This document shows, piece by piece, positions 6,789-52,466 of a DNA stretch of 64,000 bases. Numbering within the stretch: the first letter of the stretch is position 1; every line of letters begins with the position of its first letter. The DNA is from Candidatus Microgenomatus sp. (GTDB taxonomy: Bacteria > Patescibacteriota > Microgenomatia > UBA8517), in assembly GCA_020724555.1 (NCBI GenBank), contig DYGT01000007.1:15258-79257 (forward strand), given 5' to 3'. The position numbers and the translations under genes are program-made. The notes under the pieces were generated by a model. That model had not been told where the DNA came from and ran no database searches. It saw only the letters and a list, made by a program, of their open reading frames with translations.

Positions 6789-6802
6789 GATTGATTATTG
6801 TG

Positions 6803-6873
6803 TCGGGGTACCAGGAATCGAACCTGGACCGGACGCACCCCATGCGCCCATTCTACCTTTAAACTATACCCCG
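6803..6873 (-). tRNA. tRNA-Pro (anticodon GGG), CCA not encoded
   Basis: Reverse complement gives perfect 7-bp acceptor CGGGGTA/TACCCCG, T-arm CCAGG-TTCGATT-CCTGG and anticodon loop ATGGGGT; D-arm is weak (G·U pairs). Confidence 0.7.
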
Positions 6874-6908
6874 TCGTTTCATTCCTGTGTATAGTTTGCG
6901 AGCTTACA

Positions 6909-6928
6909 CTTTAAAACTATACCCCGTC
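6909..6928 (-). repeat. Partial duplicate of the 5' ~19 nt of tRNA-Pro
   Basis: ctttaaaactataccccgtc here versus ctttaaactataccccgtc at 6857-6875. Confidence 0.5.
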
Positions 6929-6946
6929 CTTTGCTTATTATACCAG

Positions 6947-25431: not shown

Positions 25432-26919
25432 ATGCAAAAAGAGGATATAATTACAAAATTTATAGTTTTATCTGAAGAAAACAAAATTCCTTTGGATAAA
25501 AATTATTTAAAAAAGGTGTTTGATTTTGCCCAGGATGCTCACGTCGGGCAGAAGCGTTTAAGCGGTGAAGATTATGTGTGGCATGGGTATGAGGTTGGAA
25601 AGATATTAGTTTCTTGGCATTTAGATCCTGAATCTATTGTTGCAGGCATTTTACACGATAGTGTAGATGATGGAGCCGCTTCGTACGAAGATCTTAAACA
25701 GTCATTTGGTGAGGGTGTGGCAAATTTGGTGCGTGGAGTAACTGTCCTTGGCAATATCCGTTTAAGGGGTAGCCATGACGCCGAATTTGTGGAAAATTTA
25801 CGTAAAATGTTTTTGGCAATTTCGCAGGATTTGCGGATAGTACTTATCAAGCTGGCAGACAGACTGCATAACATGCGAACTCTTAATTCACTTCCGCCCG
25901 ATAAACAAAAAAAGATTGCCGAAGAAACACTGGAAATTTTCGCGCCGTTAGCTGAGCGGCTTGGTATGGGGGAGGTAAAAAGCGAGCTTGAAGATCTTTC
26001 TTTTCCGATTGTTTATCCGGAAAAATACAAAGAAGTGGTTAGTCTTTCCCGATCCCAATATAAAGAAGCTGCCGAGCATATTACAAAAATGCGCCACACC
26101 ATATTGCGCTCACTCGCTAAAGAAGGTATAAAAGGCGCTAAATTACATGCAAGAAAAAAACATTTATATTCTTTATGGCGCAAACTGGAAAGAAAAGACA
26201 TAAAAGGAGATTTTTCCCAGATACACGATATTGTAGCCATGAGGATATTGGTTAATAGTATAAAAGATTGCTATGTCGCCTTGGGAGTTGTACACACACA
26301 TTATAAACCAGTGCCGCATTTGGGTGTTTCAGATTTTATAGCCCAGCCCAAGCCAAATGGCTATCGGTCAATTCACACCAAAGTTTTTGGGCCAAAAAAC
26401 CGGATCGTTGAAGTACAAATAAGAACGTTTGCTATGCATGAAGAAGCCGAATACGGAGTAGCCGCCCATTGGGCATATAGCGAAGCTAAAACAACGGGAA
26501 AAATATCTGACACCAAAGGTGTGAGCGTAGATATTGACAGATTAAATTGGGTAAAGCAGTTAGCGTCTTGGCAAGAAGAAATTGTCGACTCAAAAGATTT
26601 TTTGGAAGCGGTTAAATTTGATGCATTAAGTGATCATAATTTTATTTTTTCTCCCAAAGGGGATGTCTACGATTTACCGGTTGGGGCTACACCTGTTGAT
26701 TTTGCCTTTGGGGTTCATACAAAGCTGGGTAATTACATTCAAGGAGCAAAAGTTGACGGTAAAGTTGTTCCCTTGTCAACAGAGCTCAAAAGCGGTCAGG
26801 TGGTCGAAATTATAAAAAGCAAAAATCCAAAAAAACCAAACCGGGATTGGTTAAGATTTGTAAAAACGCCAACCGCAAGACGCGCGATCCAAAAAGCCAT
26901 ACGGGAAGAAACCGGATAA
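25432..26919 (+). CDS. rel: (p)ppGpp synthetase/hydrolase Rel/SpoT, short form (HD + synthetase + TGS)
   Basis: HD motif HDSVDD, synthetase motif RSIHTKV..Q.RT, TGS segment; 495 aa, so apparently lacks the C-terminal ACT/RRM region. Confidence 0.8.
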   Translation: MQKEDIITKFIVLSEENKIPLDKNYLKKVFDFAQDAHVGQKRLSGEDYVWHGYEVGKILVSWHLDPESIVAGILHDSVDDGAASYEDLKQSFGEGVANLVRGVTVLGNIRLRGSHDAEFVENLRKMFLAISQDLRIVLIKLADRLHNMRTLNSLPPDKQKKIAEETLEIFAPLAERLGMGEVKSELEDLSFPIVYPEKYKEVVSLSRSQYKEAAEHITKMRHTILRSLAKEGIKGAKLHARKKHLYSLWRKLERKDIKGDFSQIHDIVAMRILVNSIKDCYVALGVVHTHYKPVPHLGVSDFIAQPKPNGYRSIHTKVFGPKNRIVEVQIRTFAMHEEAEYGVAAHWAYSEAKTTGKISDTKGVSVDIDRLNWVKQLASWQEEIVDSKDFLEAVKFDALSDHNFIFSPKGDVYDLPVGATPVDFAFGVHTKLGNYIQGAKVDGKVVPLSTELKSGQVVEIIKSKNPKKPNRDWLRFVKTPTARRAIQKAIREETG

Positions 26920-36460: not shown

Positions 36461-36789
36461 AGTGGTTTTTACTTACAGCGTTAGCTTTTGCTTTTTATCT
36501 GGTGCTTGTGCCTCACATAAATAGCCTAACCGACCCGTGTTTGCTTGATTATCAGCCATTGGCGTGCGACGCAGGAGGGATAATGGACCGTTTTTTGTTT
36601 TTAGAAGTGATTGGATTTTTTGTTTTTGGTATTTTTTCCTATATCCTTTTCAGGACTAACAAAATTGAACTTAAGGTTTTTTTTACCCTTCTTTTAGTTT
36701 TTGCGGCACTTATGATTGGCAATTATTACCGCTATATCCCCATGTTTTTTTCTCAGACTCAAAAAATTAATATTACCTTTTTAGAGTAA
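36457..36789 (+). CDS. Hypothetical small membrane protein
   Basis: 3 predicted TM helices. Confidence 0.3.
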   Translation: MKWFLLTALAFAFYLVLVPHINSLTDPCLLDYQPLACDAGGIMDRFLFLEVIGFFVFGIFSYILFRTNKIELKVFFTLLLVFAALMIGNYYRYIPMFFSQTQKINITFLE

Positions 36790-36920
36790 TTATCCCTTTT
36801 GTGTTAAAATTGAGCCTGCAAGAGGAATATTGCCCGGTTGGTGTTCCGAGCTTCCGACCTAAAGTCGAGAACTCGTGAATGCTCGATTGCGAAGCAGATC
36901 GGCATAATGGTAGTAAAAAA

Positions 36921-37196
36921 ATGGCATTTTGTTATGTAATCAAATGTTCAGATAAAAGTTACTATGTAGGATCAACTAAAGATATTGTCGGTCGTTTTAA
37001 AAATCACAAGCTTGGTAAAGTAAGATATACAAAGTCCAGAAGTCCTTTGAAATTAATTTTTGTAAAAGAGTTTGAGACATATAGTGAGGCTTATAATTTC
37101 GAACAAAGAGTAAAATCATGGAAAAAGAGGAAATCTATAGAGAATATGCTTAATAAGTCTGATAATGTAGTATCCAAATATTGCCCGGTGGTGTAA
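36921..37196 (+). CDS. GIY-YIG nuclease-superfamily protein (UPF0213-like); its last 5 codons are encoded by a tRNA-Gln 5' fragment
   Basis: CYVIKCSDKSYYVGSTKDIVGRFKNH...YTKSR motif set; track ORF starts at 36879 but the conserved family start is MAFCYV at 36921. Confidence 0.7.
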   Translation: MAFCYVIKCSDKSYYVGSTKDIVGRFKNHKLGKVRYTKSRSPLKLIFVKEFETYSEAYNFEQRVKSWKKRKSIENMLNKSDNVVSKYCPVV

Positions 37197-37201
37197 TGGT
37201 A
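37177..37201 (+). repeat. 24-nt direct repeat: 4 nt upstream plus the first 20 nt of tRNA-Gln (second copy 37254-37278); a diverged third copy lies at 36826-36844
   Basis: atattgcccggtggtgtaatggta appears twice exactly; aatattgcccggttggtgt at 36826. Confidence 0.7.
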
Positions 37202-37204
37202 AGC

Positions 37205-37237
37205 AAAGCTTGGCCTTCGGCTAAAGCAAAGCTTGGC
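37205..37237 (+). repeat. 33-nt element aaagcttggccttcggctaaagcaaagcttggc, copy A (identical copy B at 52431-52463)
   Basis: Exact 33/33 match between the two loci; internal 13-nt direct repeat gcaaagcttggcc and a hairpin with a TTCG loop. Confidence 0.9.
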
Positions 37238-37258
37238 CATTACACCCTATTACTATAT

Positions 37259-37332
37259 TGCCCGGTGGTGTAATGGTAGCACGTCGCGCTCTGGACGCGG
37301 AAATTGGGGTTCAAATCCCTGCCGGGCAGCCA
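37259..37332 (+). tRNA. tRNA-Gln (anticodon CTG)
   Basis: Acceptor TGCCCGG/CCGGGCA with U1:A72 and G73, D-arm GTGT-AATGGTA-GCAC, anticodon loop CTCTGGA, T-loop TTCAAAT, CCA encoded. Confidence 0.8.
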
Positions 37333-37584
37333 AGACGGGCACCCCCTCAAGATCGAGGTCTCTATTCGGCTTGAGGAGGCTTGCCGAAACGCTCATTTTT
37401 CTTCAAATCATTCGAACCGTAAAAATAGCTTCAACGCTTCTATATTAAAGCTCTGGTTCGAGTAAAACCAAATCAGCTAGGGTAATTTGGAATAAACACA
37501 TTTATTTTAAAGAACTATTTGATTTCTCGGAAGTCAAGAAGATATAGATATTCATTATTTCCTCTTTAGTTGAATATCGCGTAA

Positions 37585-37610
37585 TACTGTTATACAATTG
37601 TATAACAGTA
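37585..37610. promoter_or_regulatory. 26-bp perfect palindrome TACTGTTATACAA|TTGTATAACAGTA overlapping the TTG start of the first island gene
   Basis: Exact dyad read from the sequence; spans the start codon at 37598. Confidence 0.4.
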
Positions 37611-39025
37611 TGTGCAGAAATATTCCGAATGTTGACTTTAAATCCACTTCCGATGGTTGGAGGGGAAAATTGGCTGACAATTTTACCTTTGCCAATGTTG
37701 AAGAAATCTCCAAAGCAATAGCTCAATTCCTCATCAAAGATAAAAAACAGAACAAAATAGTTGTCGGTTATGACACTCGATTTATGAGTAAAGAATTTGC
37801 TTATTTCATTGCAGCTGTGATGCAAGAGTGTGGAATTGATGTAAGTATTATTTCATCGCCATCTCCCACCCCTTACCTGACATTTGCCGTAAATGAATAC
37901 AGTTTTCCATTGGGAATAAATGTTACCGCTTCTCACAATCCACCGTATGATGACGGGATAAAAATTCGCATGGGCTACGGAGGCACACCTCCAAAGGATG
38001 TAATCGAGAAAATTGAGTCATATTTAAAAAATGGATATGAAGTAAAAGCAAAAATAAAAGGTAAAGTTAAGATAATCAATCCAAGAAAAAAATATGTAGC
38101 TCGAATTAGGAAATTTATAAATTTGGACTCTTTTGATAAAAGCGCTCCAAGAGTGTTAATAGATACAATGCACGGCACAACAAAAGGTTTCTTAGAAGAT
38201 ATTTTTGGCAATACAAAAGTAAAGATAGACCATCTTCATGAAGATTTTGATCCATATTTTGGAGGCATTAATCCCGAACCCAAATTTGAGTCAACAAGCG
38301 AATTACAACAAATTGTTAAGACTGGAGCTTACGATTTGGGGATAGCTCATGATGGAGACGGAGACCGTATAGTGGCTGTATTGCCCTCAGTCGGTTATTT
38401 GTCACCGCATGATGTAGCTAGCTTAATGGTTTTATATTTAGTAAAGCACAAACAGCTTCAAGGTACTGTTTTTGGGAGTTCTACTCTTGGTCGTCGCGTA
38501 GAAAGAATCTGTGAGAAACTTGGAATACAGTATGAAACAATGCCGGTTGGTTTCAAAAACGCAACGGACAAAATGCTAAAAGGAGAAATTTTGTTGGCGG
38601 CAGAAGAAAACGGAGGGCTTGGTTTCGGATTCTACTTACCGGAAAGGGATACCACTCTTGCAGCAGCGTTGCTACTAGAAGCTCAAGTATCCGTTGGAGT
38701 TAAAAAATTACTGGATGAGGTTGAAGAAATTGCTGGTAAATCTGGATTTTGTAGGTACAACTATTCACCCAAAGTAGATAGAAGGCGTTTGTTCAATAGT
38801 ATTTTAGAACATAGAAACGATTTTGATTTTAGAGAAATAGAGTCAATGAACGACTCTGACGGGATAAAGATTACTTATGATAACGGAGATTGGTTAAGTA
38901 TACGCTATTCTGGGACAGAAGAGATATTAAGAATTTATTGCGAATCAAATAGCCGACTAAAGGCAACAAAAATCAAAGACTTTGCAATTAAGCAGATCAA
39001 GTTACTAGAAAAGAAACAGAAATGA
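37598..39025 (+). CDS. Phosphohexomutase (phosphomannomutase/phosphoglucomutase family)
   Basis: GWRG N-terminus, active-site TASHNP, Mg-loop DGDGDR. Confidence 0.85.
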   Translation: MYNSMCRNIPNVDFKSTSDGWRGKLADNFTFANVEEISKAIAQFLIKDKKQNKIVVGYDTRFMSKEFAYFIAAVMQECGIDVSIISSPSPTPYLTFAVNEYSFPLGINVTASHNPPYDDGIKIRMGYGGTPPKDVIEKIESYLKNGYEVKAKIKGKVKIINPRKKYVARIRKFINLDSFDKSAPRVLIDTMHGTTKGFLEDIFGNTKVKIDHLHEDFDPYFGGINPEPKFESTSELQQIVKTGAYDLGIAHDGDGDRIVAVLPSVGYLSPHDVASLMVLYLVKHKQLQGTVFGSSTLGRRVERICEKLGIQYETMPVGFKNATDKMLKGEILLAAEENGGLGFGFYLPERDTTLAAALLLEAQVSVGVKKLLDEVEEIAGKSGFCRYNYSPKVDRRRLFNSILEHRNDFDFREIESMNDSDGIKITYDNGDWLSIRYSGTEEILRIYCESNSRLKATKIKDFAIKQIKLLEKKQK

Positions 39026-52419: not shown

Positions 52420-52430
52420 TTTATATAACC

Positions 52431-52463
52431 AAAGCTTGGCCTTCGGCTAAAGCAAAGCTTGGC
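52431..52463 (+). repeat. 33-nt element, copy B (identical to 37205-37237), in the blaI/M56 intergenic spacer
   Basis: Exact 33/33 match. Confidence 0.9.
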
Positions 52464-52466
52464 AAA

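Follow-up and report, generated by a model that had tools for sequence, protein, structure and literature searches.

Why should the start of a tRNA gene be repeated upstream of that gene, around an open reading frame (ORF) for a very small nuclease? The question is raised by a 64,000-nt stretch of the genome of Candidatus Microgenomatus sp. (contig DYGT01000007.1, positions 15,258 to 79,257), referred to here as the window. In it, three copies of the 5' end of a tRNA-Gln gene are associated with an ORF for a GIY-YIG nuclease and with a structured insert, S, that splits the first copy. The initial annotation of this DNA offered two explanations. Either a GIY-YIG-associated element would insert into, or be excised from, the tRNA 5' region, or the layout would be a generic tRNA-promoter architecture. 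We consider it probable that the locus is a compact selfish homing-type nuclease cassette of tRNA genes. Our searches of the literature turned up no account of GIY-YIG genes accompanied by duplicated tRNA 5' ends, and the layout is apparently that of an undescribed tRNA-targeting selfish DNA cassette.

The window encodes two tRNAs, tRNA-Gln(CTG) and tRNA-Pro(GGG), as identified by both ARAGORN and Rfam. All three copies of the tRNA-Gln 5' end that were reported initially are present, beginning at 36826, 37178, and 37255. The sequence AATATTGCCCGGT is exact at 36826-36838 and 37177-37189, and TATATTGCCCGGT occurs at 37254-37266. The exact repeat between the second and third copies also stands, with its start moved by one base: the 24-nt ATATTGCCCGGTGGTGTAATGGTA occupies 37178-37201 and 37255-37278, rather than beginning at 37177 and 37254. 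Allowing up to three mismatches, the 21-nt core has two matches versus 0.01 expected from shuffled sequences. The first copy had been described as diverged. It is present, but is not merely diverged, since it is interrupted by the 60-nt S: the tract ending in GGTGT stops at 36844, and the copy resumes after S with TAATGGTAG. We refer to this split copy as relic 1 and to the second copy as relic 2.

The ORF lies between these two relics, and its final four codons and TAA stop come from relic 2, in agreement with the initial reading that its last residues derive from a tRNA fragment. The relic 2 junction, TAATGGTA followed by AGCAAAGCTT, is also found in the closest homologue (locus L047) and in a syntenic locus (L107). 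Between relic 2 and the intact gene are the 33-nt element and the inverted D-arm copy that had been noted there, at 37201-37238 and, as CCATTACACC, at 37237-37246. The element consists of AAGCAAAGCTTGGCC twice (37201-37215 and 37224-37238). In predicted folds the inverted copy, or anti-D arm, pairs with the D-arm of relic 2 to form a long hairpin closed around the 33-nt element. The insert between relic 2 and tRNA-Gln is thus compact, at 53 nt; the insert made up of S and the ORF is about 340 nt. Judging from its sequence and position 20 nt 5' of relic 1, the extended -10-like box TGTTAAAAT is probably the original tRNA-Gln promoter.

By size, sequence, and fold, the nuclease is a single-domain, minimal GIY-YIG protein of the UPF0213/YhbQ type. 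Residues 2-71 match PF01541 (E = 5.5e-18; 65.5 bits versus a cut-off of 22.6), and Y14, Y15, G17, R25, H29, and E61 are invariant across eight homologues. Searches with phmmer identified PDB entries 1ZG2 (E = 7.1e-11) and 1YWL (E = 6.5e-6), both uncharacterised UPF0213 proteins, and Foldseek ranked the same two structures first and second for the AlphaFold model (pLDDT 85). After UPF0213, the nearest solved fold is the nuclease domain of Slx1 (root mean square deviation 2.0 A over 71 columns); I-TevI and UvrC are poorer matches. Only about 20 residues lie outside the Pfam domain and no second domain was detected, so the protein does not have the C-terminal DNA-binding module of Seg-like homing endonucleases. 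The NCBIfam model for group I intron endonucleases scores 18 bits versus a cut-off of 56. Gene callers predict a 105-aa version extended through S, whereas homologues begin MAFCYV. The ratio of nonsynonymous to synonymous substitution rates (dN/dS) is about 0.1-0.2, indicating that the nuclease is under purifying selection. The searched literature contains neither an assigned function nor a genomic syntax for UPF0213 proteins.

A conserved C-terminal KPDN motif falls outside the Pfam domain. The codons for its D and N residues form the hexamer GATAAT, and where the ORF overlaps a tRNA, GATAAY is conserved about 15 nt ahead of the tRNA +1 position. The hexamer could serve the downstream relic and tRNA as an internal -10 box, and KPDN/GATAAY may be kept as the -10 box of the tRNA rather than for the protein.

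The second component of the locus, S, is a pair of adjacent hairpins. A covariance model matches it at 58 bits (E = 3.9e-13), the only match in the window, and elsewhere detects S in GIY-YIG loci only. Across 25 sequences, 99.4% of cells are paired. Double-sided changes at four pairs account for 34 cells versus 10.7 +/- 3.9 in shuffles (0 of 500 reach 34), and shifting the pairing partners abolishes pairing. The R of AATRC covaries with the Y of TCGGYA in 26 of 26 sequences. Two alternative pairings were rejected. An alternative fold of hairpin B involving TCGAGAATGCTCGA leaves a U.U mismatch uncompensated, and given the perfect covariation of AATRC with TCGGYA the two-stem fold was kept. Pairing between S and the relic was dropped because relic position 7 and S position 6 do not covary and S pairs with itself. 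G.T pairs make up 22 of 656 in S, and the mean minimum free energy is -30.1 for the plus strand and -29.1 for the minus strand. One pair is C-G in 14 sequences and U-G in 10, which slightly favours the plus strand.

Is this arrangement peculiar to one genome? We fetched 93 loci encoding relatives of the nuclease (given L numbers here) and analysed the 87 distinct ORFs whose downstream sequence covers at least 120 nt. In 58 of the 87, a tRNA gene on the same strand begins -20 to +160 nt from the end of the ORF; by our estimate, based on about 45 tRNA genes per Mb, the chance rate is about 0.4%. Thus GIY-YIG genes do recur beside tRNA genes, as the initial annotation had proposed to check. Twenty-one of these ORFs end on or in the tRNA, typically with an 11-nt overlap that comprises the last four codons and the stop. 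The downstream genes encode tRNA-Gln (32), Glu (11), Ala (7), and Pro (3), with one each for Leu, Met, Lys, Ser, and Phe. The hosts are mostly metagenome-assembled genomes (MAGs) of candidate phyla radiation (CPR) bacteria, or Patescibacteria, including Curtiss-, Woese-, Lipton-, and Paceibacteria, along with one Omnitrophota MAG. The window itself derives from JGI metagenome 3300029893; the homologues of its phosphoglucomutase include a single near match with a named host, at 62% identity, from candidate division CPR3.

The clades of a neighbour-joining tree of the nucleases follow the identity of the tRNA: Gln, Glu, Ala, a second Gln clade, and a Pro pair. The Gln clade mixes CTG and TTG isoacceptors, and TCGTCTA...GGAC is common to the targeted Gln and Glu tRNAs. 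Loci of the Gln and Glu clades share this order: a -10-like box, the first 13 nt of the local tRNA, S, TAATGGTA, and the ATG. The GGCATAATGGTA preceding the ATG is conserved across most Gln-clade loci. A TANAAT hexamer, mostly as TGnTAAAAT, lies 5' of the relic in 21 of 26 loci of the S-bearing clade, at a distance of 7-21 nt in 17 of them; the promoter-like -10 box therefore adjoins the relic rather than the functional tRNA. In other clades the relics are longer: those of the second Gln clade reach the 3' strand of the D-stem, and those of the Ala and Pro clades extend to the anticodon loop. Different hairpins are inserted at the relic in these clades. In the Ala clade the ORF is bracketed by perfect inverted repeats of 16-20 nt that differ between loci. 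Solo relics without an ORF also occur at tRNA-Gly genes in L062 and L065.

Relics tend to match their own tRNAs. The 13 nt ahead of S are identical to the 13-mer of the cognate tRNA in 14 of 24 Gln- and Glu-clade loci, versus 3.4% of non-cognate pairs (permutation, 0 of 10,000). This match persists although synonymous divergence (dS) between cassettes is at least 0.5 and ranges up to saturation. The first 13 nt of the tRNA are repeated upstream for 30 of 59 tRNAs with a GIY-YIG gene versus 4 of 25 without one. A neighbouring paralogous tRNA accounts for one of these four, which is spurious, leaving three genuine cases among the 25. A control 13-mer from the 3' half of the tRNA gives no repeats. 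These counts lead us to reject the generic promoter architecture that was offered as an alternative.

The window tRNA-Gln is itself unusual at 37259-37285: it has G9 and a flipped D-stem pair (TGGTGT...GCAC) where the sequence is otherwise invariably TCGTCT...GGAC. This D-stem is unique among 26 cassette-bearing tRNA-Gln genes and is shared by all three copies in the window. It could be a target-site escape variant.

Comparison with relatives suggests turnover at these sites. The initial annotation had recommended following the tRNA-Gln locus across related genomes, and the most informative case is L107. It is syntenic with the window upstream, with two histidine kinases, a response regulator, a DUF4258 protein, and a membrane protein. 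There is no GIY-YIG gene at L107, although the relics remain: behind a promoter (tgctaaaat), relic 1, which contains an unrelated 31-nt hairpin, is separated by 8 nt from relic 2. The 33-nt element, an anti-D arm, and tRNA-Gln then follow in that order. Three positions in the 5' part of the tRNA distinguish the window from L107, and in each lineage all three copies share the state of that lineage. So does the anti-D arm, which in L107 is CCATTATCCGAC and tracks that lineage's D-arm, GTCGTCTAATGG. The copies must therefore be younger than the divergence of the two lineages, or be continuously homogenised.

Other loci show further signs of turnover. In L036 and L037, S is 100% identical and the ORF 97% identical, whereas the relics are 77% and tRNA positions 1-13 are 85% identical; the acceptor stems differ and the flanks are unrelated, in keeping with a cassette that forms a discrete unit. 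The ORF of the closest homologue, L047, is interrupted by 136 nt. In L026 and L095 the cassette is at different tRNAs within one Leu-Val-Phe cluster. The adjacency of 58 of the 87 ORFs to tRNA genes, the excess of 5' repeats where a GIY-YIG gene is present, and the relics of L107 all favour insertion or excision by a GIY-YIG-associated element, the first of the two explanations proposed initially.

At several loci (L044, positions 1616-2617; L039, L040, L053, L073, and L081), a single tRNA gene is flanked by tandem GIY-YIG ORFs, two or three in number and of different clades, indicating that cassettes accumulate at the same loci. More distant family members occur near other RNA genes, and some of these provide a mobile context. 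L063 encodes a tRNA-Asn(GTT) with a group I intron in the anticodon loop (positions 218-492; RF00028, 53.7 bits) and, about 135 nt past that tRNA and behind a terminator-like hairpin, a distant GIY-YIG ORF (676-915). In L066 a tmRNA gene (1394-1791) is about 200 nt 5' of a distant GIY-YIG homologue (2001-2192). The family may also be tied to other structured RNA genes.

The tRNA-Pro gene of the window has a related arrangement. As reported initially, its 5' end is duplicated, with exact copies of GACGGGGTATAGTTT at 6861-6875 and 6914-6928 (minus strand). The repeat grows to 19 and 20 nt in the two copies, with an additional T in the upstream one, and the 5' pattern has two matches versus 0.10 expected from shuffles. 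The putative -10 box is 8 nt 5' of the relic. The 33-nt spacer between relic and gene contains an inverted copy of the D-arm, matching the arrangement at tRNA-Gln, and there is no ORF. Features of both loci are listed in Table 1.

Table 1. Positions of cassette, relic, and tRNA features at the tRNA-Gln and tRNA-Pro loci of the window
Feature	Position	Strand	Remarks
Extended -10-like box TGTTAAAAT	36802..36810	+	20 nt 5' of relic 1; sequence reading
Relic 1, part 1: AATAT plus tRNA-Gln positions 1-13 (TGCCCGGT[T]GGTGT)	36826..36844	+	one additional T
S: two adjacent imperfect hairpins, TCCGRYC..GRYCGNGA and TRCNCGAYY..RRTCGGYA	36845..36904	+	at relic tRNA position 13/14
Relic 1, part 2: TAATGGTAG (tRNA D-loop, positions 13-21)	36905..36913	+	a few nt 5' of ORF
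GIY-YIG ORF, 91 aa, UPF0213/YhbQ type	36921..37196	+	ends ...KYCPVV* inside relic 2
GATAAT within ORF (D-N codons of the conserved KPDN motif)	37161..37166	+	promoter-like scan match TAGAGA-17-GATAAT
Relic 2: ATAT plus tRNA-Gln positions 1-20	37178..37201	+	identical to start of real tRNA gene
33-nt hairpin element: AAGCAAAGCTTGGCC, TTCGGCTA, AAGCAAAGCTTGGCC	37201..37238	+	
Anti-D arm CCATTACACC	37237..37246	+	perfect inverted copy of GGTGTAATGG
Intact tRNA-Gln(CTG) gene	37259-37332	+	ARAGORN; Rfam RF00005, 59.2 bits
Intact tRNA-Pro(GGG) gene	6802-6873	-	ARAGORN and Rfam
AACTATAC, inverted copy of relic/tRNA D-arm GTATAGTT	6889..6896	-	within 33-nt spacer; sequence reading
tRNA-Pro relic: GA plus positions 1-18 (GACGGGGTATAGTTT[T]AAAG)	6909..6928	-	
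Extended -10 box TGGTATAAT	6937..6945	-	8 nt 5' of tRNA-Pro relic; sequence reading

How might such loci arise? The observed architecture, its recurrence, the correspondence between clade and target, the covariation in S, purifying selection on the nuclease, the ORF-less orthologous locus, and the identity of copies within a lineage are the basis for the following proposal. A cassette consisting of a gene for a catalytic-domain-only GIY-YIG nuclease and the double-hairpin S would target the 5' part of tRNA genes, at the D-loop in the Gln and Glu clades and at the anticodon loop in the Ala and Pro clades. Insertion would bring with it a direct duplication of the tRNA 5' segment. Of the two copies, the upstream one, or relic, would be the original gene start; split by the hairpins, it would retain the tRNA promoter and become the leader of the nuclease mRNA. 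The downstream copy, into which the ORF often reads, would complete an intact tRNA and leave the host unharmed. In the window, a second event of like kind would have added the 53-nt insert (33-nt hairpin, inverted D-arm copy, and short spacer) flanked by a 24-nt duplication. This would have created the third copy and moved the stop codon of the ORF off the functional tRNA. The tRNA-Pro repeat would be an ORF-less product of the same process. Fold-back copying was also considered as an origin of the anti-D arm and rejected, as by eye the reverse complement stops after the inverted segment.

In this proposal the nuclease would cut either the tRNA gene or a hairpin structure, the duplication would arise at insertion, and insertion or excision would take place at the tRNA 5' region. 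Deletion between direct repeats would give back a naive gene. We propose that relics match the local tRNA because of repeated gain and loss; renewal could also occur by gene conversion. Cleavage by RNase P where the stop codon is inside the tRNA would yield a non-stop mRNA, a conflict that the second duplication in the window may relieve. A decoy D-arm would be sequestered in the hairpin that relic 2 forms with the anti-D arm. By analogy with I-TevI, which reportedly represses itself through an operator that mimics its homing site, the relic on the promoter side could be a target-mimic operator.

Several points weigh against a selfish homing-type cassette. A 91-aa protein without a DNA-binding domain leaves recognition of the tRNA gene unexplained, and as the intact downstream tRNA retains the presumed target, a further assumption is required for protection from self-cleavage. 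GIY-YIG enzymes are not known to generate target duplications of 13-24 nt. No relatives of the nuclease were found among viral contigs. Neither in a near-identical genome nor in a close relative did we find a clean empty site. A comparison made for this purpose through synteny of the phosphoglucomutase (PGM) gene with L099-L103 (63-86% PGM identity) revealed no tRNA-Gln upstream; these loci retain PGM, an Fe-dependent alcohol dehydrogenase (Fe-ADH), an inositol phosphatase, and a NUDIX protein. In L008/L036 and L039 the relics match another type of tRNA-Gln than the gene downstream. Several loci have a downstream gene in common, so the distribution is partly vertical. Purifying selection, together with relics and hairpins conserved over saturated dS, would also fit a resident function useful to the host.

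That last point leads to what we regard as a possible, if unlikely, alternative: a resident, host-integrated operon in which a stable cellular GIY-YIG gene is co-transcribed with the tRNA and the relics and hairpins are functional cis-elements. These could act as a target-mimic operator through which the nuclease represses itself at the tRNA promoter (the case of I-TevI being a precedent), as a leader that sets the balance between translation and RNase P processing, or as a decoy that the anti-D hairpin neutralises. Such an operon would be in keeping with the low dN/dS, with relic-tRNA identity far in excess of neutral expectation, with the compensatory changes in S, and with the relic 2, 33-nt, and anti-D hairpin unit kept with matching changes between the window and L107. 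The close spacing of relic and -10 box in 17 of 26 loci and the 21 loci with a stop codon in the tRNA, where cleavage would leave non-stop mRNA, are likewise in its favour. Yet the ORF is missing at the orthologous L107 and disrupted in L047, the same relic position holds different types of hairpin, near-identical cassettes have unrelated flanks, and cassettes occur in tandem and at many tRNAs with clade-specific targets. A resident operon is compatible with a mobile origin, and thus partly complements the selfish cassette rather than replacing it.

A different possibility, which we consider improbable, is that targeting is guided by nucleic acid or structure, with S RNA or DNA, flanked by tRNA positions 1-13 and 13-21, directing the nuclease to a branched structure. 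It would account for a nuclease without a DNA-binding domain and for a conserved double hairpin with target-identical arms on either side, and the closest solved fold after UPF0213 belongs to Slx1, a branched-DNA endonuclease. The arms, however, run in the sense direction and do not differ from the adjacent gene, which is also what a simple relic would show, and unrelated hairpins occupy the same place in other clades. S is inverted in L021/L022 and missing beside the relic in L011 and L056. G.U pairs are rare in it, and both strands fold nearly equally well. For the mini-elements, the D-arm-complementary anti-D segment might take over the guide role, given that at tRNA-Gln and tRNA-Pro these segments complement the local D-arm and in L107 follow it; this extension, too, seems doubtful. 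The Slx1-like fold and the branched S are only a lead towards structure-directed cutting. We see only a slim prospect that the loci form a new class of mobile element, in which a nuclease limited to an Slx1-like domain is structure-targeted by S and its tRNA-identical arms, or by the anti-D arm in mini-elements; with every insertion, the 5' end of the tRNA would then be copied. We see a modest chance of the targeting principle itself being new.

Classical explanations seem to us very improbable: att scars of an integrase island, a promoter or leader repeat generic to all tRNAs, the remnant of a group I intron, or chance. It is true that tRNA genes are common integration sites and that an archaeal 5' tRNA fragment flanks a recombinase-encoding element (PMC3293823). 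Against this, no integrase or recombinase domain was found among five scanned neighbouring ORFs or in precomputed Pfam calls within about 3 kb, where the neighbours are histidine kinase, response regulator, DUF4258, membrane protein, PGM, and Fe-ADH genes. The contrast with 3'-end integrase scars drawn in the initial annotation is apt. The inserts are only 33 nt (the tRNA-Pro spacer), 53 nt, and about 340 nt, and the repeats derive from the 5' end. A repeat generic to tRNAs would not be confined to 3 of 25 control genes. Regarding introns, ARAGORN predicts a continuous tRNA-Gln gene. At the Rfam (release 15) gathering threshold the window has tRNA matches only. At E <= 1, the region 36780-37340 adds only weak, apparently fortuitous matches, of the 33-nt hairpin to mir-266 and of the tRNA-Gln gene itself to mascRNA. 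Neither search yielded a family for S or the 33-nt hairpin, or a match to the group I ribozyme RF00028, although the same RF00028 search recovers the intron in L063. Chance is excluded by the shuffles, with 0.01 (Gln) and 0.10 (Pro) matches expected.

The locus resembles several known systems in part. T4 SegB is encoded by a free-standing GIY-YIG homing endonuclease gene within the T4 tRNA gene cluster (PMC2330249). Like it, the cassette comprises a GIY-YIG gene, probably selfish, among or beside tRNA genes, linked to a conserved RNA gene and outside introns. Seg proteins, however, exceed 200 aa, have a DNA-binding domain, and are phage-borne, whereas this protein has 91 aa, is of the UPF0213 type, and has no viral homologue that we could find. 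Seg loci lack the tRNA 5' duplication, the S module, and an ORF running into the tRNA, all of which are present here. Integrase islands and prophages likewise preserve the gene through a partial tRNA duplicate, with direct tRNA repeats flanking the insert. A Caldiarchaeum element leaves a 5' fragment of tRNA-Thr (PMC3293823). Bacterial integrase islands, in contrast, duplicate the 3' end, encode a tyrosine or serine recombinase, and are kilobases long; here 13-35 nt of the 5' end are duplicated, there is no recombinase nearby, and the units are 33-350 nt.

The I-TevI family and its group I introns share the GIY-YIG domain and a conserved RNA gene as target, and the Ala-clade ORF lies within a long-range stem. 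Unlike group I introns in the anticodon loops of bacterial tRNAs, the cassette has no ribozyme, leaves the tRNA uninterrupted, and needs no splicing. The UPF0213/YhbQ proteins of known structure and the Slx1 nuclease domain are the best sequence and fold matches, of the same size and with a single domain; Slx1 differs in acting on branched DNA together with Slx4 and a RING domain. IS200/IS605 elements with REP/RAYT, and the TnpB-omegaRNA (OMEGA) systems, are similar in being small and bounded by imperfect palindromes, and in placing a structured nucleic acid beside target-matching sequence. The cassette, however, encodes neither an HUH transposase nor TnpB, and those families do not have long 5' tRNA duplications; to our knowledge, GIY-YIG chemistry is incapable of strand transfer. 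Without a DNA-binding domain, a recombinase, or an intron, the locus falls outside systems of the SegB, integrase, and intron types.

Some further features of the window and its relatives deserve mention. No other GIY-YIG gene or copy of S was found in the window. A distant GIY-YIG protein has a weak tblastn match (E = 0.005) at 25942-26109, within a 495-aa ORF (25432-26919), that is probably spurious. A second copy of the 33-nt hairpin element occurs at 52427-52464, right after the stop codon of an ORF and ahead of the next gene; as this copy is not associated with a tRNA, the element appears to be a small dispersed palindromic repeat. At 37584-37611, just 5' of the PGM start, lies a perfect 28-nt palindrome (ATACTGTTATACAA/TTGTATAACAGTAT). 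It has a similar counterpart, TGTTATACAAnnGTATAACA, ahead of the PGM orthologues in L100 and L102 and is probably a conserved operator. In L099, the relative with 86% PGM identity, a reverse transcriptase (RVT_1) and helix-turn-helix pair occupies the region 5' of PGM (797-2094). Two independent Logan contigs identical to the window at 36.9-37.2 kb (L002 and L003) stop at the same base, which lies within the 33-nt element and 37 nt past the end of the ORF. In L105, an 80% relative, the contig terminates precisely with the stop codon of the membrane-protein gene, immediately ahead of the relic region. These ends suggest assembly breaks or population variation at the locus.

Structures of UPF0213/YhbQ proteins were solved years ago, and these small GIY-YIG proteins now gain a testable genomic syntax and a likely role. 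The strategy is the 5'-end counterpart of that used at the 3' end by tRNA-targeting integrative elements: duplication of the first 13-35 nt keeps the tRNA intact. It is carried out with extreme compactness, in about 340 nt in total with a 91-aa nuclease. The cassette accounts for pseudo-tRNA 5' fragments and over-extended gene calls (the 105-aa version), and possibly for broken contigs in assemblies of CPR genomes. If GIY-YIG homing into tRNA genes is indeed guided by structure or nucleic acid, the orphan UPF0213/YhbQ family would acquire a function, and a nuclease with structure- or guide-dependent targeting would be of biotechnological interest.

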